Translations under genes and position numbers: made by a program
NCBI GenBank assembly: GCA_016125035.1
Contig: WGMN01000001.1
Coordinates: forward strand, 258,427-322,426
Direction: 5' to 3'
Source of the DNA: Pseudomonadota bacterium
GTDB taxonomy: Bacteria > Pseudomonadota > Alphaproteobacteria > UBA2136 > UBA6156
Length of the DNA: 64,000 nucleotides
The notes under the pieces: generated by a model
What the model was told of the DNA's origin: nothing
What the model saw: only the letters and a program-made list of their open reading frames with translations
Database searches by the model: none
Shown here: piece after piece, positions 23,310 through 52,585 of the stretch
Position numbering within the stretch: position 1 is the first letter of the stretch
Layout: each line of letters begins with the position of its first letter

Positions 23310-23771
23310 TTATGGAGTGCCGTTGGGCATGGCTGCCGCACCAAGGTTGGGGCGCCCTGCCGGGCCGCCTGCGTCGTCTTGCCCCAGGGGAAGCTCGTTG
23401 GCGGGGCGGGCCCATTGGTAGCGGTCGGTGAGGAAGATGGTGCTCCAGTTGCCGAAAACGCGGGTGTTATCATCGGTGATGTGGGGGTAAGTCCACAGCA
23501 AGAGGGTTTGCGGCGGGCTGACCAGCGCCAGCTCTTTTTCTGGCAGGTAGCTGGGCCTATCCACCTTGGGGCGTGTGGATTGGCGGATAACCGGGTTTTG
23601 CATGCCCCCTGAACCACCCCGCATGTTTTGCGCGGTGGAAAGGGCGCTGTCCATGCTGAGGGGATAGTCGGGCGGGACCGCGCTGCCGTAATAGCGGCAG
23701 CCCGCCAGCAACACGGCTGAAAACACCAGGCCCTTGGCCAGGTGGGGAAGGAAGGAGGACGGTGTGCGCAT
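23310..23771 (-). CDS. small lipoprotein, TraV-like by position
   Basis: Lipobox LLAGC. The gene sits between the TraB-like and TraC-like genes, as traV does in the F plasmid. Confidence 0.4.
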   Translation of the reverse strand: MRTPSSFLPHLAKGLVFSAVLLAGCRYYGSAVPPDYPLSMDSALSTAQNMRGGSGGMQNPVIRQSTRPKVDRPSYLPEKELALVSPPQTLLLWTYPHITDDNTRVFGNWSTIFLTDRYQWARPANELPLGQDDAGGPAGRPNLGAAAMPNGTP

Positions 23772-23786
23772 GGGTGTTTTCTCCTG

Positions 23787-25217: not shown

Positions 25218-25223
25218 GCGTTT

Positions 25224-27317: not shown

Positions 27318-27428
27318 AGTTTGGGGTTTTTTTACCTTGGGTTACGCGATGATAATGCCCAAGGCTTGGGCCGATGTCAGCAGATATCAGGTGTGGCGAG
27401 AGAGAAACGATGCTTGGTTAAGCTGCAG

Positions 27429-29330: not shown

Positions 29331-29370
29331 ACCTTTAAGTTTGGGGCGGGAGGCTTTGTGTTGCAAGGGG

Positions 29371-31551: not shown

Positions 31552-31730
31552 ACGTGCCTCTTTTTAATTGTTGGCCCGAGCATGCCACATTGTGGCCGGG
31601 GCGTCAGGGGCGCAAGCGAGGGCGGGGGTGAGTGCTGACAGGGGGTGTGGCAGTTGCGCTACCGCCCCCACAGGCAAGCCGCCCTCCCCTGCGCCTGTGG
31701 TGTGGAGAGGGCGGCCTGTTGCCGGAGCTT

Positions 31731-32177
31731 TTACCAGCGCCGCCAGTAAAGGTAGGTTTGCGGCGGTTCGTATTCGTAATAGACCGGCGGCGGGCGGTAG
31801 ACCACCACCGGCGCCACCGCGACCGGATAGGGGACCGGCACGTAGACAGTGGCCGGCGGTACCACAGGTGGCGGGGGCACGACCGGGGCGGGCTGAGGCA
31901 CCGGCATGACCGAGGTGCTGTCCTGCACCGTTTTGGTGGTAGTGCTTGTGGTGGAGCCCACCGGGGCAGCAGGCGCCGGCGTGGTGACCGTGGTGCTGCT
32001 CTCGGTATGGCTGATGACCACGTTGCCGCCGAGGAAGCAGCCCTTGGTGGCGAGCTCGGCCAGTTTGGCCGGCGTGAGGACGGTTGGCCAATCGCACACC
32101 GGCTGGGCGGCGGAAGCAATGGACAGGCTGGCGACGAGGCAGGCGGCGGGAAGCGTGCCGCGGAGAAGTGGGCGCAT
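31731..32177 (-). CDS. small secreted Pro/Val-rich protein
   Basis: Signal peptide followed by a PxxP-rich low-complexity region. Confidence 0.4.
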   Translation of the reverse strand: MRPLLRGTLPAACLVASLSIASAAQPVCDWPTVLTPAKLAELATKGCFLGGNVVISHTESSTTVTTPAPAAPVGSTTSTTTKTVQDSTSVMPVPQPAPVVPPPPVVPPATVYVPVPYPVAVAPVVVYRPPPVYYEYEPPQTYLYWRRW

Positions 32178-32294
32178 GGCGGCCCTCCTTATTTTGCGAG
32201 AACGGAACGGGTGGATGGCCCGCCCTGGCGGGCGGCGTAGGCTCTTAAGACGTTAGATGCATACAGTTATTGCGGTAAAATGGCAAGGCGGCTT

Positions 32295-34064
32295 TTAGGC
32301 CGCGCCTTTTTTGGCCTGGTTTTTGAGGGTTTGCTGGAGCTCGCCCAGGAAAGGACTGGGTTGCGGCGTGTGCCAGGTGAGCAGCAGGTTGGCGCGGGTG
32401 CGGCTGATGGCCAGGTAGAACATGCGGCGCTCGTGGTCGGGGTTAGGGCCCAGCAGGGTTTGCGGCGGCCACGGCCAGGAGGCGGCGCCGGCGTGGGGCA
32501 AGATGACGGTGGTGAACTCCATATTACGCACCTCGCGCACCGGGGCGACGGTGATGGGGGACTCCATATTCGGCAGGGTTTCCTGCATGACGCGGGGCAG
32601 CACCTCGGTGAGTTTGCCCGACAGGCTGAGCAGGGTATCGGTGGCCAGCAACGCCTCCGGGTGCTCGGCCGCCGGGAGGGTGGTGAGGAGCTCGGCCACC
32701 AGGGACTTGAAGACGTCTCGCGGCGGCATGGCCTTGGCCTGCAACAGCTGCCCGGCACCGGCAAAAGCACGGCGCACCCGCTGCACCGCGGTTTGCAGCG
32801 GCGGGGTGAGCCCTTCCAACGGCGGCAGCGGGCAACCGGCCGCCAGCCAGCCCTCGGCCCTAAGGCCCTGGCTGAACAGCCCCGTTACCACCCCCGCCGG
32901 CAGGCCGAAACCGATGAGCACCAGCTGCAAATGCGCGGGCGTGGCCTGGCCGAGCATGACGTAGAGCATGGCCAGCACCAGCTGGGCGGTGGGATTCTCC
33001 CATATAAGCCGGGCGTAGCTGGCCGGGTTCATGCCTGCCTTGCGCAGCACCTGGGTGATGAGCGAAGCGGTAAAATCATCCCGCGTGAGGATGCCGATGG
33101 CCAAGCGCGAGCCCTTGGCCTGCGCCAGCAGTTGCGAGCAGGTGCTGGCAAGGAAGGCGTGCTCGGCCACCGCGGAGGGGAAGGCCTCGGCGCGGAGGTC
33201 TCCCGGGTTGGGGTTGGCGGTGCCGTCGCCCTTGGTGGCGCGGTGCTTGAGCTGGCGGGCGATTTTGTTAATGGCGGGGGCCAGGGTTTTGGGCAGGCGG
33301 AAGCTGACCTCCAGATTAAAGCGTGTGATGTCTGGCCAGGCTTCCACCGCCTCGATGGCTTGCAGGCCCATGGCGCCGTCTTGCACGAAGGCGGTGATGT
33401 CGTCATCTGCCGCCATGGTGAGGGCCACCCCGCTGCCCATGTGCATTTGCAGCCAGATGAGCTGGAGCTCGGTGGCGTCTTGCAGGTTATCCAGCAGAAT
33501 GTGCGACACCGGCAGCGGCGGGACCTTGCCCTCCCGCATGCCCAGCACGTGGCGGCGGATGATGTCGTGCCTATCGAGCAGGCCGAGTTCTTCCAGCTTG
33601 TGCTGGTAGGCGCTGACGAAGGCGTAGTGGCGGTCGGTCTCTGGCAGCTTTTTGGCGTGGCTTTTGGCCGCGCGGATGATGTGCTCGGCCTCGGACAGTG
33701 TGCCGGGGAACGCTTGCTGGGCCACCAGTGTGCGCAGGATCTCCCTCACCTGGTTGTTGCTGACGAAGGAGAAGGGCTCGCCCGCTGCTTGCAGTTGCGC
33801 GGCGGCGAGGTCTCGCAGCGTGCCGGCGCGCAGGCCGCCGGTGGCGATGTGTGCGTTGAATTGCGGGTAGTGACCGTGGGCGTAGCTTTTGATGTACTCC
33901 AGGCTGCGGAAGGCGAAGGTGCACAGCGCCGCCTTTTGGCCGGAAGTGATGAGGCGGTGGGCTTTTTCCAGCAGCAGCAGCGTTTTGCCCGAGCCGGGTG
34001 GGCCGACCACCAGGGCGCTCTCATGGTGTTTGAGGACTGCTTGCTGGCTGCGCGACCACTCCAC
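32295..34064 (-). CDS. UvrD/Rep-like superfamily I helicase domain protein
   Basis: Walker A VVGPPGSGKT and the UvrD_C-like motif FYLAISRTRANLLLTW. Motif II reads DNLQD rather than DEFQD. Confidence 0.65.
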   Translation of the reverse strand: MEWSRSQQAVLKHHESALVVGPPGSGKTLLLLEKAHRLITSGQKAALCTFAFRSLEYIKSYAHGHYPQFNAHIATGGLRAGTLRDLAAAQLQAAGEPFSFVSNNQVREILRTLVAQQAFPGTLSEAEHIIRAAKSHAKKLPETDRHYAFVSAYQHKLEELGLLDRHDIIRRHVLGMREGKVPPLPVSHILLDNLQDATELQLIWLQMHMGSGVALTMAADDDITAFVQDGAMGLQAIEAVEAWPDITRFNLEVSFRLPKTLAPAINKIARQLKHRATKGDGTANPNPGDLRAEAFPSAVAEHAFLASTCSQLLAQAKGSRLAIGILTRDDFTASLITQVLRKAGMNPASYARLIWENPTAQLVLAMLYVMLGQATPAHLQLVLIGFGLPAGVVTGLFSQGLRAEGWLAAGCPLPPLEGLTPPLQTAVQRVRRAFAGAGQLLQAKAMPPRDVFKSLVAELLTTLPAAEHPEALLATDTLLSLSGKLTEVLPRVMQETLPNMESPITVAPVREVRNMEFTTVILPHAGAASWPWPPQTLLGPNPDHERRMFYLAISRTRANLLLTWHTPQPSPFLGELQQTLKNQAKKGAA

Positions 34065-34073
34065 GGCCGGGCC

Positions 34074-34862
34074 TTACGCGCTGGGGTTGACGCGGTGGAT
34101 GCGCAGGTACATGGCGTAGACGTTGCGGATGTAACGGTTGGCATAGTAAGCCGTGCCGCTGTGGTAGCGGCCCACCAGGCCCCACCAGTCGCGGCCGGAG
34201 TCGCGGTTCTCGAGCAGGTATTGCACGGCGTAGGCCAGGTTGGAATCAACATTAAAGGCCTGGTGCAAGGTGGCGAAGTGGCTGCCGTGCACGCGCCAGT
34301 TAATTTGCATCATGCCGATATCGAGGTTGGTGTAGCCGCTGGAGAGGAAGCGTTGGGCAAAATTCTCGGCCTCCTGCGTGTTATTGAAGCGGCGCGAGAA
34401 CGGCCGCGGTTGCAGCACCACCGGGGAGAGATCGGACAGCGCAGAGAGCTGGGCCGATGTTTCCGCCGCGCTGGCGTTGGAGCGGGCGATGCCCGGGGCG
34501 CGGAAGTCGAACCTTACGAAGCCCATGGCGCGCCACTGGTTAAGGGCGGAGAGCGCGGCGGCGCGGCCGGAAAGTGTGCGCGAGGACGGTGCGTTGACGC
34601 CCACGGTGTAGGGCCACGGCAACACCCAGCCGCGGATGCCCTGCCCGGTTTCCACCAGGCTGATGGCGTGGAGCAGGCCGGGCGGGATGTTGTGGGTGTG
34701 CTCGGCCTCGCTGATGAGCAGCCAGGCGTTGCGCGCGACCACCGGGTCGAAGGGGTCGGAGGCGTACTCGGCCTGTGCGTGGATGCTGCCGATGGCGGCG
34801 AAAAGCGGCAGCAGGAGGAAGAGGAACTTCACGGTTATTTTATGGGGGGCGGCGTTAGGCAT
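34074..34862 (-). CDS. specialised lytic transglycosylase (SLT domain, VirB1/IagB-like)
   Basis: Signal peptide, then an SLT catalytic region (LLHAISLVETG…QINW). Confidence 0.7.
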   Translation of the reverse strand: MPNAAPHKITVKFLFLLLPLFAAIGSIHAQAEYASDPFDPVVARNAWLLISEAEHTHNIPPGLLHAISLVETGQGIRGWVLPWPYTVGVNAPSSRTLSGRAAALSALNQWRAMGFVRFDFRAPGIARSNASAAETSAQLSALSDLSPVVLQPRPFSRRFNNTQEAENFAQRFLSSGYTNLDIGMMQINWRVHGSHFATLHQAFNVDSNLAYAVQYLLENRDSGRDWWGLVGRYHSGTAYYANRYIRNVYAMYLRIHRVNPSA

Positions 34863-34873
34863 TGCTGGCAACC

Positions 34874-35602
34874 CTACCGCAAGAATACCAGGAACAGCAC
34901 GCCTTTGTCGCCGGGCTGGCCAGCCGGGGCAAGGCGCAGGTTTTCCATGGAAGCAAAGCGCAGCACGCCCCACTCATCGGTTTTGGGAATGGTGATGGCC
35001 GGGAGGTTGACCTCGTTAGGTTTGGCGTACTCATTACGCACGTGCACCACCAGGCCGGTAAGCTGGGGAGATTGCCAGACCTCGGCGAGATCGAACATCA
35101 TGCCGTTGCCGCGGAACCAGTTGGGGATGACGTAGGTCTCGCGGTTCACTCCAGGGATGTCTTCATCCTGGGCCATGGAGCGGATGAGATCATGCGGGCC
35201 GAAGTTTTTGGAAATGTTACGCTTGACCTGGTCGAGCTCCAGCCCGTTGACGACTTGCAGGAACGAGCGGTAGGGCACGTCGGTGGTGAGCACCACGATG
35301 TAGGTGTTGCCCGATTGGCCGGTGAGGAACATGCGTGTGGCCATTTTGGGCAGCAGCGAGCGCATGCGGAAGGCGCGGTTGTTGTAGCCATCGACCACCA
35401 GGATATCGACGTAGCTGGGGTCTTCCAGCGTGACGTTGGTGATGGGTTCGGGGAATTCCACATGAGAGACGTCGTCTTGCGTCAGCCCGATGGTGAGGGT
35501 TTTGGTGGGCCCCTGCCACACCAGAGTATCGGCATGCAGCGCGGCAAAGGGCAGCGCCAGCAGGGCGAGGATGAGCAGGAGGGGGCGCAAGGCGTTCTTC
35601 AT
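34874..35602 (-). CDS. TraK/VirB9-like secreted protein
   Basis: 242 aa, the same length as F TraK, with a signal peptide and a β-rich body. It sits between the TraE-like gene and the lytic transglycosylase. Confidence 0.4.
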   Translation of the reverse strand: MKNALRPLLLILALLALPFAALHADTLVWQGPTKTLTIGLTQDDVSHVEFPEPITNVTLEDPSYVDILVVDGYNNRAFRMRSLLPKMATRMFLTGQSGNTYIVVLTTDVPYRSFLQVVNGLELDQVKRNISKNFGPHDLIRSMAQDEDIPGVNRETYVIPNWFRGNGMMFDLAEVWQSPQLTGLVVHVRNEYAKPNEVNLPAITIPKTDEWGVLRFASMENLRLAPAGQPGDKGVLFLVFLR

Positions 35603-35696
35603 GGATTGGTGGGCTGATTTTGCATGGTTTGCCCCTGCTTGGCCAGTGCCTTATGGGGAAGAGCGCTGAAGTTGTGGGCCATGACACAGGCAGCGG

Positions 35697-36359
35697 TTAC
35701 TGGGCCGGCGGCGCGGCGGCCGGAGCGGGAGCGCCGCCGGGAGTGGTGAGCGGTGTTTCCTTATAAGAACTGAGTTTGAGGCCGTAGGGGTTGGCCGGGC
35801 TGACTTGCGTTTTCTCGAACTTCATGGCGATTTGCAGGGGCACGTTTTCCGCCACCGTGCCGGCGATGATGGTGTTGAGCTGGCCGATGATGGTGACCTC
35901 GCGTATGTCTACGCCGTTCTCGCTGTATTTTTTGACTTGCAGGGAGGATTCGTCTGGCACGAAGAGCGATGAGCGGCGGTCGGCGGTGGAATCGCGGATC
36001 TTACGCTCGAAGTAGGGCACGGAGTCGGTGAGCAGGGCGGGGGAAAAGAAGCTTCTGATCGCGCTGTATTGTTTGGCCATGGTCTCGGGCGTGAAGGAGT
36101 TGATGGACTGGGTGATGTAGCTGGTGAACATCATCGTCAGGCGGTCGTCTTCCGTGGGGCTGTAGAGCCCGGTGGCGGCGCCGGGCACCACGATGACCGG
36201 CAGGCTCATGCGGCGTTGCATCAGCTGCGCGTTGAGCGAGGCGTTGCGGCTTAGCTGGCAGGTGGTGACCAGGCCCAGCACGATGACGCAGATGAGCAGC
36301 ACACCGGCGATGCGGTGGGCACGGTCAATGACAGCTCCGGCGCGGGCGACGAAATCCAT
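35697..36359 (-). CDS. TraE/VirB8-like bitopic protein
   Basis: An N-terminal TM followed by a periplasmic domain of about 170 aa. The position follows the TraL-like gene. Confidence 0.35.
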   Translation of the reverse strand: MDFVARAGAVIDRAHRIAGVLLICVIVLGLVTTCQLSRNASLNAQLMQRRMSLPVIVVPGAATGLYSPTEDDRLTMMFTSYITQSINSFTPETMAKQYSAIRSFFSPALLTDSVPYFERKIRDSTADRRSSLFVPDESSLQVKKYSENGVDIREVTIIGQLNTIIAGTVAENVPLQIAMKFEKTQVSPANPYGLKLSSYKETPLTTPGGAPAPAAAPPAQ

Positions 36360-36469
36360 GCGGCAAGCTTAGCGTGTTGGCGCAAAGATGGGGAGGGATT
36401 AGGCGTGGCACCCGGGTGGTTTGCGGCAGGGGGTGTGGGAATTGGGGGACTGGGACCCGCAGGCGGGCC

Positions 36470-36736
36470 CTACATTTCCAGCTTTTTACAAAACCGCGGA
36501 GATGGGCGCATGCGGCCCAGCTGGATGTAGCGGTACATGACCCGCATGGCCAGCCCTTCCGGCTTATCCATGGTGAGTTTGTACATGAAGTAGGCCGCCA
36601 TGGCGCCCAGCAGGATGGACGGCAGCGCCTTGCCGCTGACAAACATGCAGGCGTAGTAGGTGGTGAGGTAAGTCATGACGTATTCAGGCGTGCGGTTGGG
36701 CCTGTCGATATTACGGGGCACGGAGCGCATTTGCAT
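36470..36736 (-). CDS. TraL/VirB3-like small membrane protein
   Basis: About 70-88 aa with one hydrophobic helix and basic flanks. It sits directly after the pilin genes, as traL does in the F plasmid. Confidence 0.3.
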   Translation of the reverse strand: MQMRSVPRNIDRPNRTPEYVMTYLTTYYACMFVSGKALPSILLGAMAAYFMYKLTMDKPEGLAMRVMYRYIQLGRMRPSPRFCKKLEM

Positions 36737-36742
36737 GGCGGG

Positions 36743-37090
36743 TTACTGCACCGTGACCGTGCCGCACGTGCCCCCCAGGCTGCTGACGATGGGGCAGACG
36801 ATGCCGCGGAAACCGTTAAAGACCGTGGGCAGCATGGTGATGATGACCCCGCACAGAATAAGCACCATGCCAAAGCTGGTGTTGCCCTTGGCGCCTATGG
36901 TCCACACGCCGAGGAAGGCCACCGCCAGCCCGAAAGCCAGGCCCAGTTTGCCGGTGATGATGAGCTTGAGCAGTGCAAGCTCGGCACTGCCGACAGGTGC
37001 CTGGGCGGCCTCGGCCCAGCCCATGGAAACGGCGCCGATACCCAGAAGTATCAGCGCCGTAAAGAGGAGCAGGGTTGCGCGCGTTGGCAC
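36743..37090 (-). CDS. VirB2/TrbC-like T4SS pilin (paralogue 1)
   Basis: 115 aa. A signal peptide is followed by two hydrophobic helices separated by a short loop. Confidence 0.55.
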   Translation of the reverse strand: MPTRATLLLFTALILLGIGAVSMGWAEAAQAPVGSAELALLKLIITGKLGLAFGLAVAFLGVWTIGAKGNTSFGMVLILCGVIITMLPTVFNGFRGIVCPIVSSLGGTCGTVTVQ

Positions 37091-37110
37091 AGCTTAACCT
37101 TTGCCGCGGC

Positions 37111-37464
37111 TTAGCGGCCGACGTCTTGCACGGTGGTGGTGCTGCCGCCGAACTGAGTGAGCACGCCGGACGCGAGGTCATGCATACCGTTGAAGATGCC
37201 GGGGACCAGGGTGATGAGCACACCGCCGATGATCATGACGATGCCGGCGCCGGTCTCTTGCTTAACGATCCACGTCCACAGGCCGAGGATGGTGATGGCC
37301 AGGCCGATGAAGAAACCGATACTGCCGGTGATGGAATCCTGCAGGGTGCCGAGGATGGTGTTACCCGCGTCGGCGGCGTTGCCGGCGGCGAAAGAGGGCT
37401 CTACCACCGCAGCAAGCATGAGCATGGCAGCGGCCATTGCAAAGAAGGTATGACGATTGACCAT
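37111..37464 (-). CDS. VirB2/TrbC-like T4SS pilin (paralogue 2)
   Basis: 117 aa with the same architecture. It is clearly related to 36743-37090 (…LITLVPGIFNG… versus …IITMLPTVFNG…). Confidence 0.55.
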   Translation of the reverse strand: MVNRHTFFAMAAAMLMLAAVVEPSFAAGNAADAGNTILGTLQDSITGSIGFFIGLAITILGLWTWIVKQETGAGIVMIIGGVLITLVPGIFNGMHDLASGVLTQFGGSTTTVQDVGR

Positions 37465-37540
37465 AGGTTGTGTACTCCTGTTTGATGTTATTGTTGGGTG
37501 GGGTTAAGCCTTTGACAAGCCCCTCTTTTACCGTGAGCGC

Positions 37541-40587: not shown

Positions 40588-40923
40588 TCAGCAGGTGATT
40601 AAAAAAAGGGCAGCGAGGGCGGCACCTGCGGCGCACGCCGCCTCTACCCACAAGCTGGCGGCGCCGATGGGCGTGCCGCAATGCCGGCAGCGGCCGCGCA
40701 GCGCCAGCCAGCTGAAGACGGGAATGAGATCGGCAACCCCCAGCACCGTGCGGCACTGGTTGCAGCTGCTGGGCGGGTGGCGCAGCGAGATGCCGCGCGG
40801 CAGGCGGTAGGCCGCGCAGGTGATGAAAGAGCCGAGCACGCCGCCAAACAGCGCGGCCACCAGCGGCCAGAACCAAGGCCAATGCTGGTGGATGGCGCAG
40901 GATGCCTGGAAAAACCAGCCCAA
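40588..40923 (-). CDS. prepilin peptidase N-terminal (zinc-binding) domain only; catalytic A24 domain absent
   Basis: GSFITCAAYRLP, SSCNQC and DLIPVFSWLALRGRCRHCG match the PilD/GspO N-domain. The ORF stops right after the second TM helix. No hydrophobic remainder is present in any frame downstream. Confidence 0.6.
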   Translation of the reverse strand: MGWFFQASCAIHQHWPWFWPLVAALFGGVLGSFITCAAYRLPRGISLRHPPSSCNQCRTVLGVADLIPVFSWLALRGRCRHCGTPIGAASLWVEAACAAGAALAALFLITC

Positions 40924-42014: not shown

Positions 42015-42947
42015 CTACAGGGTTCCTTTCAGGTTTATACTATAGCTTAAACTGGAGGCCGGGCTACCCCACGGGGTGGGAGAGGTGGCGTTGTTGGTGA
42101 GGCGCAAGGTGAGTGAGGAATCTGGGTTGGCGATGCTGGTAATGGCCAGCTTGCCGCCGCCGGGGAGGGTTTTTTCCAGCAGGCGGAAATCTTCGTCTAC
42201 CCCCAGCAGGCGGCGGTTGGCATCCACCGACAGGTCGAGAAAGCGCGGGGCGTTGGGATCGTTCGCCATCAACGTGGTGAAATCGAGCGTGAGGTTGGCG
42301 GAGCCGCTTTGCAGCTGGGTGAGGTATTGATTCATGATCGTGGTGCGGTAGGCGTTGACCTGCTCTTGGTAATAGCGCAGTTGCGCGCTGGCGATGCGGC
42401 CGAGGTGCTGGCGCACGTTGGCCCAGTTATCGCGCTGGGCGTCTTCATTGGTGAAGGTGATGACGATGTCGTCGGAGCCCACAGGCGGCAGGATGCCTTG
42501 CAGGGCGGAAATGCTGCCGACCGCGGGGATGGTGGTCTCCAGCTTATGGTTGGGGCCGCTGGAGATGAGCGCCACGCCGGTGACCGGCACCACCACCGTA
42601 TCGCTGGGGGGATTGCTGTAGAGCACGCGATTTTCGCGCACCATAAGGCCTTGCATGGGTTGGCCCCAGGGGTCGAGCGTGGGGTCGGCCCAGCGGCCGG
42701 TGCCGAGTTGGGCGAGATCTGGCGTGGTGCGGATGAAGGCGAGGATGTCGGTTTGGCTGGAGGGGGCGAGCTCGAAATTATCCAGGGTGATGTTCTGGGC
42801 CACTTTGCGCACCGCGTTCATGTAATCCTGTGCGGCGTCGACACGCATGCGCGACAGCTGGGCCGTGCTTTCTCCGGCACCCACGATGATGCCGCCCGTG
42901 ACTGACAGGAACAGCGAAAAAATGGCAAGGAACAGCATTGCCTGCAT
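42015..42947 (-). CDS. membrane-anchored periplasmic pilus-associated protein (310 aa)
   Basis: An N-terminal hydrophobic helix with no canonical prepilin cleavage motif. The start is translationally coupled to the upstream gene. Confidence 0.45.
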   Translation of the reverse strand: MQAMLFLAIFSLFLSVTGGIIVGAGESTAQLSRMRVDAAQDYMNAVRKVAQNITLDNFELAPSSQTDILAFIRTTPDLAQLGTGRWADPTLDPWGQPMQGLMVRENRVLYSNPPSDTVVVPVTGVALISSGPNHKLETTIPAVGSISALQGILPPVGSDDIVITFTNEDAQRDNWANVRQHLGRIASAQLRYYQEQVNAYRTTIMNQYLTQLQSGSANLTLDFTTLMANDPNAPRFLDLSVDANRRLLGVDEDFRLLEKTLPGGGKLAITSIANPDSSLTLRLTNNATSPTPWGSPASSLSYSINLKGTL

Positions 42948-43009
42948 GGGTGGAACCTCCTTTCTGGCCAGTTGCTTATACCGGCCTGCACCAGCGCCGA
43001 CTTACAGGG

Positions 43010-43594
43010 TTACTCCACCCCCGGAATACTGAGCCGGTGCAAACCGTAAATGCTTTTGAATTCCACGATTTTAGGGTGGATGGCGATGATGGTGAGATCG
43101 AGCGTGGGGTTGGCTTCCAGGCGCTTGTTAAGCTTGTTTTCCAGCAGGTTGGCGGCGTCGCTGTCGTACTTGCGCAGTTCATCGAGGGCGGCGTCGGCGT
43201 TCTGGGTGCGGGCAAGGGCCACGCGCACCTGGCTGCCGACCCCCATCCACTGGTTATATATCAATACTTTAGGGCCCGCCGCGCCATCTACCCGGCCGCC
43301 CATTTGCAGGCCCTGCAACTGCGGCTGGAAGGCGCTTTTGCTGTTGAGGATCTGCTCGGCCTGGTGCAGCGCCTGCAGGCGGGCGATGCGCAGGGCCTCG
43401 GCCTCGACGTCGAGGGTGGAGGAGACCTCCTCCACCTTAGCCTTAACTTGCGGGAACGGGCTGGGCTGGCCGCTGTAGGTGGGAACGACAGTGGCCGAGG
43501 TGGAGTTGGCCGCCTTCCACAAAATGATGCTTTGGCCCCACGCCAAGGGCGAGAGCAAAACCAGCGCGGCGACGAGGGCGAGGTGTTTGATCAT
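43010..43594 (-). CDS. periplasmic protein (GspC/PilP-like by position)
   Basis: Signal peptide MIKHLALVAALVLLSPLAWG. The assignment is by position only. Confidence 0.4.
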   Translation of the reverse strand: MIKHLALVAALVLLSPLAWGQSIILWKAANSTSATVVPTYSGQPSPFPQVKAKVEEVSSTLDVEAEALRIARLQALHQAEQILNSKSAFQPQLQGLQMGGRVDGAAGPKVLIYNQWMGVGSQVRVALARTQNADAALDELRKYDSDAANLLENKLNKRLEANPTLDLTIIAIHPKIVEFKSIYGLHRLSIPGVE

Positions 43595-44106
43595 GACGGT
43601 TGGCCCGGAGATTTTTTATCCAGCCCGTAGATCTTGCCGGTAAGGCGCATGTGCACCTTGTTTTTTTGCCCGTATGACGGTGTGAGCTGAATGAGGTTGA
43701 TGACGATTTTTTTGGTGTTGTGCAGGCGGTCGGCCAAATAGAGCGCGGTGGAGTAGTCGAGGTCGCCCTCGATGCTGACGTTGCGCACGTAGAGGTTGTT
43801 CTCGCCCACGGTGCGGACCTCGCGCGAATCAACCGTGAAGTTGATGTCGGTTTGCTCTAGCCCCAGGTGGCGCAGGATGTCGAGCTGGGTGGCGGTTTGC
43901 TCGTCGATGGTGAGTTGGTCGAGCTCGGTGAGGGCGGCGGACAGGCGCGCGGCGTTATCGAGCTCTTGGTTCAGGCGGGTGAGCTGGTTTTGGCGGGTGA
44001 GGATCTCTTCCTCGATACTCTGGCCGGAGAAAAAGATGAATGCCGAGAGCGCCATGAGCGCGGCCAGCGTGACGAGCATGATATTGCGGTAGGAGCTGCG
44101 GGTCAT
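43591..44106 (-). CDS. GspM/PilO-like bitopic assembly protein
   Basis: 171 aa with an N-terminal TM, a coiled coil and a small C-terminal domain. Confidence 0.45.
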   Translation of the reverse strand: MTRSSYRNIMLVTLAALMALSAFIFFSGQSIEEEILTRQNQLTRLNQELDNAARLSAALTELDQLTIDEQTATQLDILRHLGLEQTDINFTVDSREVRTVGENNLYVRNVSIEGDLDYSTALYLADRLHNTKKIVINLIQLTPSYGQKNKVHMRLTGKIYGLDKKSPGQPS

Positions 44107-45398
44107 TGCGGCACCTCGGTGGAGGAGGGTGGGGGTTGGGTGGGAAGCGCCGCAGGGGGAGCCACCGCCCCCGTGGCGGAGACCATGGTAAGGGAGGCCT
44201 CTGCCTGTGCCGTGGGCGAGACCGCGCGCAGGTCTTCAGCGGTGAGGGTGACCGAGACCTGCGCCTGCTGGAGCATTTGCGGGGTTGGTTTTTCCGCCCC
44301 CTCGGTTTGCACGGCGATGGAGAGTTGGGTTTGGTCGCCAGGCGTGCCGGTGCGTTGCAGCGTGCGCACCCACGGCTGGTTGGCGATGACGTGTTGCGCG
44401 CGGCGCTCTTGCGCGAAGAGCAGTTTATCCAGCGTGTGGTTGAGGATGATATCGACCGTCTCTTGCTGCGGAGCCTTCATGCCCGAGCGGGGAGAGTATT
44501 CCGCCGGGCTGAACTTGATTTGGGTGAGGTCGCCAAATTGGGCGGCGGTGCGGGCGGCGGCGTCTACGATGCCGGAGGGCTGCTGGTTGAAGGATTTGGC
44601 CATGCTGTCGAGCAGCTCTTGCGGGCGGCGGATGTGGCCGGTGCTTTGGTTGATCTGGATACTGTTGATGCGTTGCTGGGTTTGGGTGATCTCGCCCTCC
44701 AGCCGCGCGCGCTCGGACCAGTTGGTGAAGTAGAAGGCGGCGCTAGAGATAAGCAGGATGAGCCCGAAGAGACTGCCGGTGAGGTAGATGATGGTGTGGT
44801 CGAGGTGGCGGTAGAGCGGGCGCACGCCGGGCAGCGGCTTGAGGGTGGAGAATGGCACGGGGGTTATCTGGTAAGCCTCCAGCGCCACTTGCAGGGTGCG
44901 GTAGAGCTCGAGCTGGCTGAGCACCGCCACGCACAGGGTGGCGCCGGGGTTGGCCAACACATAGTCGGTAATGGCGTTGACGAGCGCGGCCGAGGCATCG
45001 GAGCCGGTGAGCACCAGTTGCGCGGTGCGCCACATTTGCTGGCCTTCGTCGGTTTGCTCGCGCACGCCGTGGATGATGACCTCGGGGCTGAGGACGTAGA
45101 AGAAGGCCTGGCAGTCGGCCGGGGCGAAATCCTCGGCCAGCCAGACTTTGACCGACTGGCGCATTTCGCGGATTTCGTCCGGCAGGTAGCCGTAGATGTA
45201 GCGTTGGCCGGAGAACACGCGGGCAAGTTGCGGCCCGCGTACCGGGTTGTTGCCCATTTGGCGCGCCACCTCGCCCACGCCGGCGAGGTCTTTGACCACC
45301 TGGATGTGGTCGCGGCCGGGCACCAGCAGAATGGTGGTATCGCCACGGGTCATCTGGCGGAAGGTGATGCTGCGGCGGGCGAGGACCATCAGGCTCAT
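44103..45398 (-). CDS. GspL-like (PilM-PilN-like) bitopic assembly protein
   Basis: 431 aa: a cytoplasmic domain of about 200 aa, a single TM (IIYLTGSLFGLILLISSAAFYF) and a periplasmic domain. Confidence 0.4.
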   Translation of the reverse strand: MSLMVLARRSITFRQMTRGDTTILLVPGRDHIQVVKDLAGVGEVARQMGNNPVRGPQLARVFSGQRYIYGYLPDEIREMRQSVKVWLAEDFAPADCQAFFYVLSPEVIIHGVREQTDEGQQMWRTAQLVLTGSDASAALVNAITDYVLANPGATLCVAVLSQLELYRTLQVALEAYQITPVPFSTLKPLPGVRPLYRHLDHTIIYLTGSLFGLILLISSAAFYFTNWSERARLEGEITQTQQRINSIQINQSTGHIRRPQELLDSMAKSFNQQPSGIVDAAARTAAQFGDLTQIKFSPAEYSPRSGMKAPQQETVDIILNHTLDKLLFAQERRAQHVIANQPWVRTLQRTGTPGDQTQLSIAVQTEGAEKPTPQMLQQAQVSVTLTAEDLRAVSPTAQAEASLTMVSATGAVAPPAALPTQPPPSSTEVPQ

Positions 45399-45400: not shown

Positions 45401-46486
45401 CTAGCGGTACTCCATAAGCGCGAAGATGGGGCCCACCAGCGAGGTATAGGTGGCGAGAATGAAGAAGGGCAGGAGCACGGCCATGACGATGAATTTAATC
45501 GTACTTGTGACCTGGCGTATATAGCGTTCAAGCTCAAGCTTATAGGGGGTTTGCAGGTCTTCCACCCGCTCGGCGATGGCGCCGGTGTTCTCGCCCGCCT
45601 GGATGGCGTTGACGAAGGAAGCGCGGAAAGGAATGGCGGAGACGGCGTAGCTCATGCGCAGGCCGTTGCGGTGATCTTCCGCCGCCGCAAGCAACAGGCT
45701 GGCCAGCACCGGGTTGGTGACGCAGCCGGAGAGTTGCTCGAGCACTTGATAGGTTGGCATACCCGACCTTACCAGCGCAGGCAGGAAGTAGACCACCACC
45801 ATGGCGTTAAAACCGACAATCAGTTTACGGCTGACCCCCCACCACAAGGTGAATTTGAGCCAGTAAGGGCGCAGGGCATAGGTGTTGCGGCAGAAAAACA
45901 GGGTGGTAGCCAGCACCAGCACCACAATGGGCTGGAACGGGTGGCTGCGCAGCCAGACCGAAGCCACCCAGAACCATTGCAGGATGAAGGGAAAAGAATT
46001 GTAAGACTCTGGCTTGCGGTCGAGCACCGGCTGGATGACCAGCGGCAACATGATGATGAGCACCCCCAGTGAGAGGATGATGAGCATGATGCCGATGCCC
46101 AGCGGGCCGGCCAGCTTCATCCACAACTCTCGCCGGCCCTGGTATTGAACCTCCATAGCCGACACCAGCGCGGGCACCGCCTGGCGCAGCTGGTTGCTGC
46201 GCTCGGCGGCTTCCACCACCGCCAGCTCTTGCGACTTGAAGCCCAGGCGGGCCTGGGAAATGGCCTGGTAGAACGGTGTTTGGCCGGCCTCCACCTCGCG
46301 CTGGACGAGATCCATTTGCGGGCCGAGGCTGGCGTATTCGTCATGACTGAAGGCCGCGCAGGTGTTGCGCACCGCCTCGGCCAGCGACATCTGCCCGGCG
46401 CCCGCGTTCAACCAGCCGGCCAGCGTCTTGAAAAAATCAATGCGGTCGGAGGTGGAGAGGGATGACTTGCCGATTTGCAGACCCAT
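45401..46486 (-). CDS. GspF/PilC-family inner-membrane platform protein
   Basis: Polytopic protein with two T2SSF-like repeats. Confidence 0.82.
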   Translation of the reverse strand: MGLQIGKSSLSTSDRIDFFKTLAGWLNAGAGQMSLAEAVRNTCAAFSHDEYASLGPQMDLVQREVEAGQTPFYQAISQARLGFKSQELAVVEAAERSNQLRQAVPALVSAMEVQYQGRRELWMKLAGPLGIGIMLIILSLGVLIIMLPLVIQPVLDRKPESYNSFPFILQWFWVASVWLRSHPFQPIVVLVLATTLFFCRNTYALRPYWLKFTLWWGVSRKLIVGFNAMVVVYFLPALVRSGMPTYQVLEQLSGCVTNPVLASLLLAAAEDHRNGLRMSYAVSAIPFRASFVNAIQAGENTGAIAERVEDLQTPYKLELERYIRQVTSTIKFIVMAVLLPFFILATYTSLVGPIFALMEYR

Positions 46487-46547: not shown

Positions 46548-48359
46548 CTAGGTTGCCAGTGTTTCGGCTGAAAGTTCAAGGATTTTCGTCGAGAGCTCGG
46601 CGGCGTCGGTGATGCCGGACTTGATGTGCTGGGCGCCCATCCGCCCCATTGGCTGCCAACCGGCACGGCGGGCCATGTCTTCCAATTCCGTGTAGTTGCG
46701 TTGCGCGCTTGCCTCAATGATTTCACGCGTGGGCTTGAGCCACTCGGCCACCGCGATGCGGCTGTAGTAACCGGTGAAGTTGCAACTGGCGCAGCCTTCC
46801 GGGTTGGCGACGTGCAGGTCGGCGCCCTCGAACGACACGCCGTAGCGGTCGAAAACATAGCGGGTGTAGTCATCCGGCGTGGGTTGCTTGATGCGGCAGT
46901 GGGTGCACAGGCGGCGCACCAGGCGCTGGGCGGCGATACCGCGCACGTATGACAGCATGAAGCCGTTGATGCCGAGTTCGTCCAGCCGGGAAATGGCGTC
47001 GAGCGAGGTGTTGGTGTGCAAGGTGGTGAACACCAGGTGGCCGGTGTTGGCGGCCTCGAACACCAGGCCGGCCATTTCGGGGTCGCGGACTTCGCCGAAG
47101 ATGATCACGTCTGGGTCGGCACGCAGGGAAGACTTGAGCAGTTGCAGGCCGGTGCGGGCAGGGTCTTCGTTGGAGACTTCCATCTGCACCGCGTAGCCGG
47201 GCACGCGTTTTTCAGGCGGGTCTTCGATGGTGTGCACGGACAGCCCCTTGGCCATGGGATTGACGCTGATGACCGCGGCGTGGATGGACTCGGTTTTACC
47301 CGAGCCGGTGGGACCGGTCCAGAAAATGATGCCGTTGCTGGCCATGGCCGCTTGCTTGATCTTATCGATGAACTCTGGCGTGTAGCCGATGACTTCCAGC
47401 GGCATGACATCCGGTTGCAGGCGGCGCAGCACGATGCGCGGCACCGGGCCCAGGCGGCCCGCGTGAGGCTGGATTTGCACGCGCCAATCGTAACCCGAGC
47501 GGGTGAAGGCGCCCTTGTTGGCGTGGTTGAGGTTGACCTTGGGCATGCGCGCCAGGTTTTCGATACGCACGCGCAGTCTATCCAGTTGCTCGGTGGTGAT
47601 GACCTCCTTGGGGTGCACGAAGCCGTCGATGCGGTACTTGATGATGGCGCGCGGCTCGCCCTTGATGGAGGGATCGATGTGGATGTCTGACGCGCGGGCG
47701 TCGATGGCGTTGGTGACCACGCGGTCGAGCAGGGCCTCGGCTTCCATGCCGGAATCGATGCTCTCGGATTCTCCCGACAGCCAGAAGGCGCCCGCGACCT
47801 CGCGCAGGCAGAAGTGCCAGTGCAGGTTGACCCCGTTGGCGAAAAACTCGCGGAGCTGGGACTCCAGCACCAGGTCGCGGGTGGGGCTATCGTGCGCCAG
47901 GTGGATATCGGTGACTTGCTCCTGCTCGTCTTTTTTGATCGCCAGCGGGATGATGCGCTCGCGCCGCAGCAGGGTTTTGAGGCGCGCGGGAAGATCTTGC
48001 CGCAGAGTGTAGGACTCTGGCGGGATATCGAGGATGGAGAGCAGCTCCCTCGATTTATGCGCGCGGGCGATGGCGCGGGCCAGTTGCAGGCGGGTGATGA
48101 CACGTTGGGTGAGGAGCTCCCGCGTGAGGAGTTGTTTGTTCTCGCCGCTTTTGAGCACCTCTTCCAGGCGCTTTTTGGCGACGTTGTCGATGCCGAGATC
48201 GACCGATGCGTTGAGAACTTTTAGGACGTTTTGATAGAACGCGTCGCGGTTGGTGGCCTCCAGGTTGGGGGGAGAATCTTCGGATACCGGGATGTAATCG
48301 GCGATGCCAACGGGCGCCCCGAGGGGGGCGCCAGCGTAATCTTCGGCTGCGGGTGGCAA
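46548..48359 (-). CDS. GspE/PilB-family secretion ATPase
   Basis: Walker A GPTGSGKT, Asp and His boxes, a tetracysteine motif (CxxC…CxxC) and an N-terminal N1E-like domain. The start is uncertain; a TTG at 48359 is the first start codon after the upstream stop. Confidence 0.85.
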   Translation of the reverse strand: MPPAAEDYAGAPLGAPVGIADYIPVSEDSPPNLEATNRDAFYQNVLKVLNASVDLGIDNVAKKRLEEVLKSGENKQLLTRELLTQRVITRLQLARAIARAHKSRELLSILDIPPESYTLRQDLPARLKTLLRRERIIPLAIKKDEQEQVTDIHLAHDSPTRDLVLESQLREFFANGVNLHWHFCLREVAGAFWLSGESESIDSGMEAEALLDRVVTNAIDARASDIHIDPSIKGEPRAIIKYRIDGFVHPKEVITTEQLDRLRVRIENLARMPKVNLNHANKGAFTRSGYDWRVQIQPHAGRLGPVPRIVLRRLQPDVMPLEVIGYTPEFIDKIKQAAMASNGIIFWTGPTGSGKTESIHAAVISVNPMAKGLSVHTIEDPPEKRVPGYAVQMEVSNEDPARTGLQLLKSSLRADPDVIIFGEVRDPEMAGLVFEAANTGHLVFTTLHTNTSLDAISRLDELGINGFMLSYVRGIAAQRLVRRLCTHCRIKQPTPDDYTRYVFDRYGVSFEGADLHVANPEGCASCNFTGYYSRIAVAEWLKPTREIIEASAQRNYTELEDMARRAGWQPMGRMGAQHIKSGITDAAELSTKILELSAETLAT

Positions 48360-48384
48360 GGGAAGGGCGATAGCCGGACCCCCC

Positions 48385-49047
48385 TTATTGAACCGTGTTG
48401 GCGGCGTAGCACACGTTAACAACGGAAGCTGAGCCAAGCGCGCCAGGAGTGGGAGCCGCCGCACCCGAAGTGGCGGGCAGGCAGTCGCTGCCGGTGGGTT
48501 GGTACACCAGGCGGCCTTGGGTGGGGTCTTCCGTGCCGTCGATGGTGCGGTCGGCCTCTTTGGCCTCGGTGAGCGGCATGCTGGAGAACTGGACGATCAT
48601 ATAAACATTGGTGCCGGTAAGCCCCCAGTTGGACGCGGTGCCGGGCATTTGGGTGACCGTGCCGCCGGTGCCGTAGCCGTGGTTGACGCTACCGCCGCTG
48701 ACCGCAAAACCGGGCAGCAGGTTGCGCAGCTCGGACTCGCGGATGTTGCTTTGCCAGGTGACGCCCGACGGCAGCGCGTTGGCCAGGGCCAGCATGTTGT
48801 TGGCGGCGCTGACCGAAGAGATAGCCTCGTGCGGCCAGACGCGCTGGGCGGAATAGAACTGGCCGTTGGCGTCTTCGATCTGGCGGAATTGCGAGCCCAG
48901 CTTGGTGCCGCTGGTGCGGTTGATGAGTTGCCAGCCGATGGTGACGATGATGAGCGTGATAAGGATGGCGATGATGGCGACGATGAGGATCGTCTGGTCA
49001 ATCGTATAACCCTTGCGGTTAGCCAATAGCTTTTGAAAGCGTTGCAT
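48385..49047 (-). CDS. prepilin-type pilin with atypical cleavage region (RKG|YTIDQT…)
   Basis: A short basic leader and a hydrophobic helix ILIVAIIAILITLIIV. It has Asp at +4 and Gln at +5 instead of Glu at +5. Confidence 0.55.
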   Translation of the reverse strand: MQRFQKLLANRKGYTIDQTILIVAIIAILITLIIVTIGWQLINRTSGTKLGSQFRQIEDANGQFYSAQRVWPHEAISSVSAANNMLALANALPSGVTWQSNIRESELRNLLPGFAVSGGSVNHGYGTGGTVTQMPGTASNWGLTGTNVYMIVQFSSMPLTEAKEADRTIDGTEDPTQGRLVYQPTGSDCLPATSGAAAPTPGALGSASVVNVCYAANTVQ

Positions 49048-49123
49048 GAGAGGAACCTCCATTCCTGTTTGTATCGAAGCTAGCACAAGCCAAAACCGAC
49101 TCCCCCTAAAAACAGCGGGGGCG

Positions 49124-51169
49124 TTAATTCAGCCGTTTGACCTGTAGCAAAACTACAAACTCCACTTCTTCGAAGGAAATGCCCTGCTCGTTGGCCAGTT
49201 TGCCCAGCGCCGGAACCTCGCGCAGCAGGGGAATGCCGGACTCGGTATCCACCGCCACGGTTTTGGTGAGGCCGCCGATAACCTTGATCTCGCCGTCGCG
49301 GATACGCACCTTCTGGTCGATGAGGCGGGTGTTGGCCACAGGTGCCACGCCCGCGGTGGTGCCGCTGACGCCGCCGGGGATATCCACCGTTTTGGCCAGA
49401 GAGGTAATGGGGATTTGCAGCGAGATGGTGTTGGGCTCGGAGGGGTTATCGCTGATTTGCGCCGTGGCCGAGAATTGCAGCCCGATGAACTGGTTGCGCT
49501 CTTGCACGTCGGAAGCGGTGCTGGTGGCCGTGCCGGTGGTGGTGGTGGACTGAATAATAAAATATTTTTCGTTGCGGCCATCGATGAGGGTGGCGCGCTG
49601 ACGGTCCATCAGTTCCATCATCGGGTGCATCAGCTCGTAGGTGGTGCCGTATTGCTCGAGCAGGCCGATGACTGCATCCAGGTTGGGGCCTTCGGCACTG
49701 ATGCCGCCCACGGTGGTGAGGTTGGGCGCGGTATAAGTGGCAAGGTCACGCGAGAGGGCCGAGGTGATGCTGCCGATGAAGCTGCCGCTGAGCGCGGCCC
49801 CGCCCTGCTCGCCGCCCACACGCAGGCGGGCACGCTGGTCGAAGTTGCGGGTGCGGCTGACCGCCAGCACACGCGCTTCCAGCAACAGGCGGCGGCTGGC
49901 GATTTCCTGCACGCGGTTGATGATATCGCTGGCTTCTTCCAGCACCGAGCGGGGGGCACGCATTTGCACCAGGCCCACGGATTTGTTGATGCGCACGTAG
50001 CCGCAGCGGTTGCTGTCGGAGTCATTGTCGGCGCTTGAGGATTGCTGCGCGTTGGGCGTGCTGGCGGGGATGGGCATGAACATGTTGGTGTTGGATGCCG
50101 TGGATGACTTGTCTTTATCCTTGCTGTTGCTGCTGGTGGGCGGCGGCAGCAGCTGGGCGGAGGAAGGCATGCCGACCGTTTGCACGTCTTCGGAGTGTTG
50201 GGTGCAGTTGCTCTTGATGAGTTGGTTGAGGTCATCTTCCAGGTCGACCCAGAGGTTGCGCTGGTAGTGAACCTTGACACTGTTGCTGCCGCCAGCCGCG
50301 GTGCTGCTGCCGTCGGAGCCGCTTGAGCTGCTTGAGGAACCGCTGCTGCTGGAGTTGCCGCTGGAGAAATCGGTGGAATAGTTGACCGAGATATTTTCAT
50401 CCCGTTCGGGTTCGTAGAGGTTGACCGTCCATTGGCGTTGGGGCAGGCCGCCGATGGTGACGTAGTCACCCGCGTTGATGAGGCTGAGGCCGAAGGGGGT
50501 GAGCAAGGCCTCGAAAGCATCGTAACATGTTACATCCTTGAGGTTTGTAGTGATGCGGGCAGACGAAAGTTTGTCTTTGTTCTCGGTGATGACCAGGTTG
50601 TAGTTGCACTGCTCGGCCAGGCCGCGCAGGGCTTGCGAGAGGCTGACGTTGGGGCCGGGGTTGAAGCTGGCCAGGCGCGGCTCGGAGGCAGAGGGCAGCA
50701 CGAGGAGGCGGCGCTCGCCCTCTTTAATGATTTGAATATCAAACACATCTTCGATGTAGCTGCGGGCTTCGTCGAAGGTGAGGTTGTTCATCAAAACTGT
50801 TTTGTGGCGGGAGCGGCGCACGCCGTTGCCCCAGCGCACGGCGACGTTGTAGGTGCCGGCAAGTTTTTGCAGAACAGTTTCAGTGTCATACTGGCCGGAG
50901 AGGGTGAAGGTGGCGTTGGCGGCCATTTGGCGTTGCGAGATGGGTTCGCCCATGCCGAGCACGCTGGCATTGCGTTGATTTTCAGTCTCATAGTCTTTGT
51001 AGGGGTTGGCCGGCGAGTTGCGTTGCACGTAGGAAATGCTGTTGCAGGCGCTGAGTGAAACCAACACGATAGCCAGCAAAGCGGCGGCTACAGAGCGCGG
51101 CAGAACGCTGCCGATGGCGGCAAACGGGCGGCAAAGAGCGGCGGCAAAGCTGCGGAAGGCGGCCATTAT
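49124..51169 (-). CDS. secretin (GspD/PilQ family) lipoprotein
   Basis: Lipobox LSAC, a Ser-rich linker and the C-terminal secretin motif GIPLLREVPALGKL. Confidence 0.85.
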   Translation of the reverse strand: MMAAFRSFAAALCRPFAAIGSVLPRSVAAALLAIVLVSLSACNSISYVQRNSPANPYKDYETENQRNASVLGMGEPISQRQMAANATFTLSGQYDTETVLQKLAGTYNVAVRWGNGVRRSRHKTVLMNNLTFDEARSYIEDVFDIQIIKEGERRLLVLPSASEPRLASFNPGPNVSLSQALRGLAEQCNYNLVITENKDKLSSARITTNLKDVTCYDAFEALLTPFGLSLINAGDYVTIGGLPQRQWTVNLYEPERDENISVNYSTDFSSGNSSSSGSSSSSSGSDGSSTAAGGSNSVKVHYQRNLWVDLEDDLNQLIKSNCTQHSEDVQTVGMPSSAQLLPPPTSSNSKDKDKSSTASNTNMFMPIPASTPNAQQSSSADNDSDSNRCGYVRINKSVGLVQMRAPRSVLEEASDIINRVQEIASRRLLLEARVLAVSRTRNFDQRARLRVGGEQGGAALSGSFIGSITSALSRDLATYTAPNLTTVGGISAEGPNLDAVIGLLEQYGTTYELMHPMMELMDRQRATLIDGRNEKYFIIQSTTTTGTATSTASDVQERNQFIGLQFSATAQISDNPSEPNTISLQIPITSLAKTVDIPGGVSGTTAGVAPVANTRLIDQKVRIRDGEIKVIGGLTKTVAVDTESGIPLLREVPALGKLANEQGISFEEVEFVVLLQVKRLN

Positions 51170-52431: not shown

Positions 52432-52585
52432 GGACAGCGTGCTTGACTCTTGTTGGTTGTTTGTGACGCTATCATGTTCAATTGAACCAAAGGAGTAGCC
52501 CCCGCTCATCAAATGATGGGGGTGTGACCAAAACACCATGAAAGTGCTTACGTGTTAAGCAGTTCATGACAAAAACGGAGAGCTG

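Follow-up and report, generated by a model that had tools for sequence, protein, structure and literature searches.

The 64-kb stretch of DNA analysed here (hereafter the window), which comes from a Pseudomonadota metagenome-assembled genome (MAG), contains, at 40588..40923 on the minus strand, a gene for a 111-aa protein that consists of the N-terminal, cysteine-containing domain of the prepilin peptidases PilD/GspO and lacks the whole of their peptidase domain. Short proteins of this kind are found at one fixed place in related pilus clusters, and we regard them as a real, conserved and previously undescribed domain-architecture variant in a little-known pilus lineage carried by conjugative elements. 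As to function, we see about an even chance that the 111-aa protein is a functional, free-standing pilin N-methyltransferase module, in which case leader cleavage would be left to a peptidase of the host.

A 111-aa protein that matches the methylase module of PilD/GspO

PilD/XcpA of P. aeruginosa and GspO/PulO are bifunctional prepilin peptidases/N-methyltransferases (MEROPS A24A). PilD is bi-modular: its modules are made of packed helices, and its methylase domain corresponds to the first two transmembrane (TM) domains (PMC10191384). In this enzyme, zinc is required for the S-adenosylmethionine (SAM)-dependent methylation and not for cleavage, the cysteines are spaced CxxC-x21-CxxC, and a glycine and a basic residue located by the third cysteine contribute to methylation (PMC3584216). 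The gene of the window can be summarized as follows:

40588..40923 (minus strand): stand-alone A24_N gene (IPR010627/PF06750), 111 aa; Pfam match, HMM match and AlphaFold2 model with a pLDDT of 92

The only Pfam match of the 111-aa protein is to PF06750 (A24_N_bact; E = 2.6e-26, 91.9 bits for a cut-off of 23). It spans profile positions 1-81 of 84 and protein residues 25-105; the curated threshold for membership in the A24_N_bact/IPR010627 ('methylase') domain is thus passed over the whole domain. A preliminary description, made by reading the DNA, had assigned the product to the N-domain of PilD/GspO from its motifs, and the profile match bears this out: the protein displays GSF..C..YRLP, then C54-x2-C57 and, 21 residues further on, GRC79RHC82. 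The CxxC-x21-CxxC zinc site is therefore present, together with G77 and the basic residue R78 in front of the third cysteine. The C-terminal end of the protein lies 17 residues past the invariant Glu of the second hydrophobic helix, the TGA stop codon coming directly after this helix and being followed, 60 nt further, by the ATG of a lipoprotein gene. The GC3 of the frame is 0.84, like that of the neighbouring genes.

The predicted layout comprises an N-terminal helix, a WPWFWP motif, TM1, a cytoplasmic C4 zinc ribbon (C54, C57, C79 and C82) and TM2. AlphaFold2, run with the family alignment, gives a confident model of a two-helix hairpin carrying a zinc ribbon (pLDDT 92, pTM 0.75), with (i) a helix at residues 3-14; (ii) TM1 at residues 18-43; (iii) a zinc ribbon of four strands, accompanied by short helices (residues 63-75); and (iv) TM2 at residues 88-110. 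Searches of solved structures, whether by sequence or by fold, returned nothing meaningful that resembles the 111-aa protein.

The 111-aa reading starts with TTG, while the GenBank version (MBI1308530.1, labelled 'hypothetical protein') has 118 aa and starts with CTG at 40944. The CTG codon makes the gene overlap the 3' end of the prepilin gene located upstream; the TTG codon at 40923 gives an N-terminus that agrees in length with those of the homologues, and it is preceded by a G-rich, Shine-Dalgarno-like stretch. The choice between the two start codons is ambiguous.

The peptidase half is absent from the window and from the related loci

Prepilin peptidases of the PilD/GspO type (MEROPS A24A) are characterized by a PF01478 domain, by two catalytic Asp residues, the second of which lies in a GxGD motif, and by about eight transmembrane helices. 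The 111-aa protein has neither the domain nor the aspartates, and its AlphaFold2 model shows two TM helices (residues 18-43 and 88-110) before it ends at residue 111. By these features, it is a member of the PF06750/IPR010627 family and not a prepilin peptidase. The names given by JGI to its relatives ('prepilin signal peptidase PulO-like enzyme', 'leader peptidase/N-methyltransferase') are overstated, since these proteins are not prepilin peptidases either.

We made an HMM of 275 positions from 64 full-length prepilin peptidases and used it, all filters being switched off, to search the segments of all six frames throughout the 64-kb window. Its sole match was the 40588..40923 ORF (E = 1.3e-39), which aligns with HMM positions 11-102 of 275; no counterpart of the catalytic Asp positions (around 127 and 193 of the HMM) was present in any frame of the window. 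Pfam scans showed that PF01478 is absent from the polytopic membrane ORFs of the window, and a search for GxGD by regular expression gave no plausible match in the window. Based on the filter-free six-frame HMM search, the GxGD search and the Pfam scans, we reject the idea that a catalytic domain lies concealed in a different frame or at some other place in the window. An ORF with eight TM segments (14893-15858) was also considered as the missing peptidase and rejected, as it encodes a family-4 glycosyltransferase.

The preliminary description had stated that the protein terminates right after TM2, that the A24 domain is missing and that nothing continues it in other frames, and it had singled out a catalytic domain in an adjacent frame as the observation that would overturn its account. 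Its statements stand: the alignment stops at HMM position 102, none of the six frames contains the catalytic domain and, of the two profiles it proposed for comparison, PF06750 and PF01478, only the former matches. We extended the full-length HMM search to nine related loci (designated by L numbers, see below), which were scanned over up to ±10 kb, seven of them with some 10 kb or more of sequence on one side or both, and found no A24 catalytic domain in any frame.

The A24_N gene belongs to a pilus operon on an integrated conjugative element

The A24_N gene is part of a minus-strand operon whose genes are, in order:

51166..52539 (minus strand): first operon gene, 457 aa, no family match; C-terminus conserved in L002 and L007
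49124..51349 (minus strand): secretin (PF00263, E = 3e-19; PF07655, weak)
48385..49062 (minus strand): second prepilin-like gene, about 220 aa, between the secretin and ATPase genes; leader ending in ANRKG, followed by YTIDQTILIVAIIAIL
46548..48464 (minus strand): type IV pilus/T2SS-type assembly ATPase (PF00437, E = 1e-69)
45401..46486 (minus strand): platform protein of the GspF/PilC type (PF00482, E = 3e-24)
42015..45398 (minus strand): four cluster genes (431, 171, 194 and 310 aa), no family match; order kept in L001, L002, L006, L007 and L008
40935..42014 (minus strand): prepilin-type protein, 359 aa (Pfam N_methyl, TIGR02532); leader ending in CRRG, followed by FTLAEMVIVIAVLAVL
40588..40923 (minus strand): the A24_N gene
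39130-40527 and 37541-39130 (minus strand): two genes for coiled-coil-rich lipoproteins of 465 and 529 aa, no Pfam/NCBIfam match

The 359-aa prepilin (RRG↓FTLAE, the arrow marking the cleavage site) has Phe+1 and Glu+5, and its gene ends 11 nt upstream of the A24_N gene; it is the likely substrate of the 111-aa protein. The G↓F-x-x-x-E/D motif is kept in all related clusters, with Asp+5 in one copy of L085. The second prepilin-like protein (G↓YTIDQ) has Tyr+1 and Asp+4 and lacks Glu+5; it is possibly the major pilin. In L086, a counterpart of 219 aa (48% identity) is encoded at the corresponding place, and L008 has two tandem copies of the gene; there is none at that place in L001, L002, L006 and L007. 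The listed GTG start of the ATPase gene (48464) overlaps this second pilin gene, so that the actual start is probably downstream of 48385. The products of the four genes at 42015..45398 are bitopic or signal-peptide proteins, and the position of these genes is that of alignment-complex genes. The two lipoproteins share only a C-terminal domain of about 88 aa (29% identity, E = 2e-13); in all the loci whose contig is long enough, the gene that comes after the A24_N gene encodes a homologous lipoprotein.

Genes of an F-like type IV secretion system lie directly downstream of the pilus operon, and two further genes of the same element lie upstream of it:

20678..37503 (minus strand): conjugation genes, including the following five
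37114-37503 (minus strand): TrbC/VirB2-type pilin
35697-36359 (minus strand): TraE-like protein
32295-34064 (minus strand): UvrD-like helicase
23787-25217 (minus strand): TraB-like protein
20678-23278 (minus strand): TraC/VirB4
56671-58131 (minus strand): coupling-protein-like ATPase, upstream of the pilus operon
58596-59606 (minus strand): TraF-like thioredoxin protein, upstream of the pilus operon

A gene at the SLT position stands between the TraE-like gene and the UvrD-like helicase gene. The window also covers housekeeping genes on either side of the element, namely dksA, hrcA, dnaK, dnaJ and sugar genes (as far as about 17 kb) and, from 61.3 kb onwards, yggT and rph; the whole integrated element (about 17100-61200) is thus visible. 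Of the ORFs scanned, none could be assigned to an integrase or relaxase family. Several large ORFs of the element have no family match (18124-20586, 25224-27317 and 27429-29459), and the GC content is lower (0.54-0.56) in the 27-29 kb stretch. A tRNA-Arg (CCG) gene at 1559-1635 (plus strand) adjoins dksA; it is not an obvious integration site, since it is not adjacent to the element.

Altogether, the cluster has the composition of a conjugation-associated type IVb pilus cluster, namely genes for a secretin, an ATPase, a platform protein and one or more prepilins that adjoin the type IV secretion genes of a mobile element; it does not show orthology with pilL-pilV at the level of sequence, nor their gene order, most accessory genes having no NCBIfam/Pfam match. 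Like PAPI-1 pil2 and the R64 thin pilus, it combines a secretin (with a weak Secretin_N_2 match), an ATPase, a platform protein and prepilins with neighbouring conjugation genes on a mobile element, and it has in common with them prepilin leaders of roughly 13-18 residues and a large second pilin. However, the gene order and most accessory proteins differ from those of PAPI-1/R64, and the systems are not orthologous in detail. The published descriptions of PAPI-1 that were consulted, on which the comparison with pil2 is based, mention no methylase-only gene.

The short form is conserved at a fixed position in seven independent clusters

A word-indexed search retrieved about 28 relatives of 108-164 aa with PF06750 only, 20 of which are 57-71% identical to the protein of the window. 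DNA context was obtained for seven independent clusters: L001 (= L005, from a 1-Mb contig of an Alphaproteobacteria MAG), L002 (with L003 and L004), L006 ('Blastochloris viridis' MAG), L007 ('P. fluorescens' MAG) and L008 (Pseudomonadales MAG), which we refer to as the five core clusters, and L085 and L086, which are more distant from the window. All seven contain a short A24_N gene (109-164 aa) in a fixed place, after the gene for the prepilin of about 360 aa and before the lipoprotein gene. The comparison of orthologous clusters that the preliminary description had called for thus yields the short form in seven clusters and a catalytic domain in none of the nine loci.

The gene order is well conserved in the five core clusters: ATPase, platform protein, proteins of about 370-470, 165-240, 200 and 310-350 aa, prepilin(s) of about 345-375 aa, A24_N protein of 109-164 aa and lipoproteins, with an upstream secretin gene seen in four of the five. 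In L085 and L086, the order agrees by gene size and Pfam family. TrbC, TraE and UvrD-like genes follow in the loci that are long enough, namely L001/L005, L002, L006 and L008 (the last without TrbC). In the five loci where both ends could be read, the A24_N gene starts between 14 nt before and 15 nt after the point where the prepilin gene ends. A scan of JGI metagenomes added only a few short contigs, two of which carry the same lipoprotein gene downstream of the A24_N gene. In L085, three tandem prepilin paralogues of about 345 aa (6888-10014; G↓FTLVE, G↓FTMIE and G↓FSIVD) precede the A24_N gene, which suggests diversification of the large pilin. A search of 72,556 plasmids found no member of the short A24_N family, and the ATPase homologues found there are at most 37% identical.

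The A24_N protein of the window is 56-71% identical to those of the five core clusters, and about 50-71% identical to its counterparts over the seven clusters. For comparison, the identities in the five core clusters are 68-76% for the ATPase, 61-68% for the platform protein, 39-48% for the prepilin and 26-37% for the 194-aa protein; the A24_N protein is thus as conserved as the platform protein and nearly as conserved as the ATPase. The dN/dS ratio within the core family (Nei-Gojobori) is 0.10-0.34, values that are rough because dS is saturated. A small gene so well conserved points to a working stand-alone protein rather than to a broken gene.

The short proteins form a family with its own signature

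With a profile made from 20 members, a search of 1.84 billion protein representatives gave 15 matches at E <= 1e-30; among the best 49 matches, 48 are proteins of 89-170 aa, and full-length enzymes of the ordinary kind do not come up before about 1e-24. A BLOSUM62 neighbour-joining tree puts 73 short sequences into one uninterrupted block of leaves. Strict monophyly is unsupported: with a second distance and bootstrap, the exact clade was recovered in 0/200 replicates and a relaxed one in 37/200. The case for a family therefore rests on the profile ranking, the signature residues and synteny.

Column statistics were computed for 73 short-family members and 130 full-length enzymes. Both groups have in common, at 85% or more, G27, G31, S32, F33, R40, P42, S46, P50, S52, C54, C57, P68, S71, G77, C79, R80, C82 and E94. 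The four cysteines are kept at 97% or more and G77 at 96% in the short family, as in the full-length enzymes; in a 29-sequence family alignment, C54, C57, C79, C82 and G77 are invariant and R78 is present in at least 90%. The two groups differ at (i) position 36 in TM1, which is Cys in 99% of the short family versus Val in 85% of the full-length enzymes; (ii) position 66, which is Leu in 97% of the short family versus Asn in 50% of the full-length enzymes; (iii) the start of TM2, where an Arg-Tyr pair is found in 89-91% of the full-length enzymes and in 26-34% of the short family. In addition, the WPWFWP stretch that precedes TM1 has an invariant P16 to P20 in 20 core members. In summary, the short family shares with PilD/GspO the PF06750 module, TM1, the cytoplasmic CxxC-x21-CxxC site, TM2, the Gly and basic residue and the TM2 Glu, whereas it lacks the whole peptidase domain (PF01478, six further TMs and both catalytic Asp) and the Arg-Tyr pair, and possesses WPWFWP and the TM1 cysteine.

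Some members of the short family have three or four TM segments (four in, e.g., P0027, P0068, P0077 and L085 10001-10495): they keep TM3-TM4, lack GxGD and display 'WVES(R/H)..KVLLFS'-like motifs at the site of the first catalytic Asp. These members suggest that the ancestor was a full-length enzyme whose peptidase was eroded step by step, and the 'WVES(R/H)..KVLLFS' stretch may be either what is left of the peptidase or a functional site that arose anew.

Two other architectures were encountered. An A24_N-only ORF of 106 aa in an Alphaproteobacteria MAG (L011, 9992-10312, plus strand) lies on the chromosome outside any pilus cluster; the product of the adjacent gene, judged by eye, looks like a membrane protein, perhaps of the SPFH type. 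The ORF lacks WPWFWP and Cys36, has no catalytic remnant nearby and looks like an independent truncation. A similar case was found on an Acidimicrobiia contig (L055). Conversely, P0070 is a full-length prepilin peptidase of 345 aa with two tandem A24_N zinc-finger modules before its peptidase domain.

Possible functions of the 111-aa protein

We favour a stand-alone methyltransferase because the 111-aa protein matches the methylase module, keeps the residues tied to methylation and is encoded directly after a prepilin with Phe+1 and Glu+5. In support of this explanation, the limits of the protein coincide with those of the PilD methylase domain as defined by its first two TM domains (PMC10191384). 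The following scheme can be proposed: (i) an ancestor of the pilus-cluster lineage would have lost the peptidase half, the methylase half being retained under selection; (ii) an A24 peptidase of the host cell would cut both cluster prepilins after Gly-1; (iii) the 111-aa protein, sitting in the inner membrane beside the assembly machinery, would use SAM to methylate the residue newly exposed at the N-terminus, i.e. Phe+1 in the 359-aa pilin; (iv) this methylation would take place before the pilin enters the conjugation-associated pilus. Among the options raised by the preliminary description, processing of the prepilins by a peptidase encoded elsewhere fits the data, since the integrated element contains no A24 catalytic domain in any frame, and it has a precedent in ICE PAPI-1, whose conjugative type IV pilus has no peptidase of its own and depends on the host PilD for pilin maturation (PMC8565334). 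A new stand-alone role, the second of these options, fits as well, because the conserved short family is held at one place in a conserved cluster.

Some observations go against a stand-alone methyltransferase. No SAM-binding motif is defined for the IPR010627 domain, and the module could need the peptidase half; the Arg-Tyr pair of TM2 is lost; and Glu+5 is missing from the second prepilin. The identification of IPR010627 as the methyltransferase has been called 'very likely' and is not formally shown (PMC4471445). Besides, the benefit of a separate methylase is unclear, since a host PilD would already methylate pilins and since methylation is reported to be dispensable for pilus assembly in P. 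aeruginosa (PMC3584216). For the short family as a whole, the claim of a naturally autonomous pilin N-methyltransferase is tentative, its chances falling slightly short of even.

The protein could instead be a non-catalytic pilin handler, namely an adaptor in the membrane that would bind prepilins by their N-terminus or leader at the cytoplasmic face and present them to the host peptidase or to the platform/ATPase of the cluster, the zinc-finger hairpin having lost, or never had, autonomous enzyme activity. The signature specific to the short family (N-terminal helix and WPWFWP, Cys36, Leu66), which is missing from the full-length enzymes, and the loss of the Arg-Tyr motif are consistent with such a role, and so is a degree of conservation like that of the platform protein and close to that of the ATPase, as a component of the machine would show. 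Aly et al. suggest that the zinc finger may serve in folding or in the binding of substrate or SAM (PMC3584216). However, all the residues tied to methylation are kept, including the Gly and basic pair, and we consider a purely non-catalytic role rather unlikely, if credible.

It is improbable that the 111-aa protein is one half of a split enzyme, which would dock onto a peptidase-only A24 protein of the host (TadV/CpaA/FppA type) and thereby rebuild a PilD-like bifunctional enzyme; docking may in addition widen the range of the host peptidase to the G↓F and G↓Y prepilins of the element. Related elements are found in Alphaproteobacteria MAGs as well as in Pseudomonadales, and Tad-type peptidases are common in Alphaproteobacteria. 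Peptidase-only A24 enzymes do occur naturally (TadV; PMC10191384), and an assembly in trans is plausible because the two modules of full-length PilD consist of packed helices (PMC10191384). However, there is no peptidase-only gene in the element or within up to ±10 kb at the nine loci, some hosts are Pseudomonas-like and are expected to have a complete PilD, and the loss of the Arg-Tyr pair together with the new TM1 cysteine argues that the old interface is gone.

Mobile elements often carry modulators of host functions, and the substrate-facing part of PilD is kept here while cleavage is impossible, so that the protein might conceivably interfere with the host as a decoy or dominant-negative factor that ties up host prepilins or the host PilD, for example to silence host pili while the element is being transferred or to keep out phages or competing elements. 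This is very unlikely: in every cluster the gene lies within the pilus operon, to which it is probably translationally coupled, directly after the prepilin gene, a place that fits a role in biogenesis better than one as an antagonist. Finally, the gene is short (111 aa), starts with TTG and is a 'hypothetical protein' in GenBank, as might be expected of an assembly artefact or of a truncated pilD on its way to loss, the decaying gene of the preliminary description, but this reading is effectively refuted by the intact stop codons and fixed downstream gene in seven clusters, the identities of about 50-71%, the dN/dS of 0.10-0.34, the GC3 of 0.84, the absence of a frameshifted remnant in the nine loci and the length of at most 170 aa of 48 of the 49 best representatives in the search of 1.84 billion proteins.

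Relation to known systems and implications

In being a natural one-module derivative located inside a pilus cluster, the 111-aa protein resembles TadV/CpaA/FppA of Tad/Flp pili (PMC10191384). The reduction is reciprocal, since TadV keeps the peptidase whereas the short family keeps the methylase. No published description of a methylase-only protein was found in the literature searched. The pilus-cluster lineage itself, which is carried by conjugative elements of mostly uncultured Pseudomonadota, was found neither in this literature nor in the 72,556 plasmids. An immediate consequence of recognising the family is that the database label 'prepilin peptidase' can be corrected for such proteins.

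To our knowledge, the methylase is fused to the peptidase in every enzyme studied so far, which makes the two activities hard to separate. Pilin N-methylation has been known for more than 40 years, and its purpose is still described as a mystery (PMC10191384). Since the conserved 111-aa protein is naturally detached from the peptidase, it can be produced, purified, mutated and deleted by itself. This makes it possible to test directly whether the module suffices as an enzyme and what methylation does in pilus assembly or conjugation, and hence opens an experimental route to two questions, namely the identity of this module as the methylase and the purpose of pilin methylation. If the 111-aa protein is indeed a free-standing pilin N-methyltransferase, it would provide the first evidence that the IPR010627 zinc-finger hairpin can act as a self-sufficient membrane enzyme; the mobile element would bring its own methylase and borrow whichever leader peptidase the host has, and the gene would allow the role of pilin N-methylation, still unexplained, to be approached by clean genetics.
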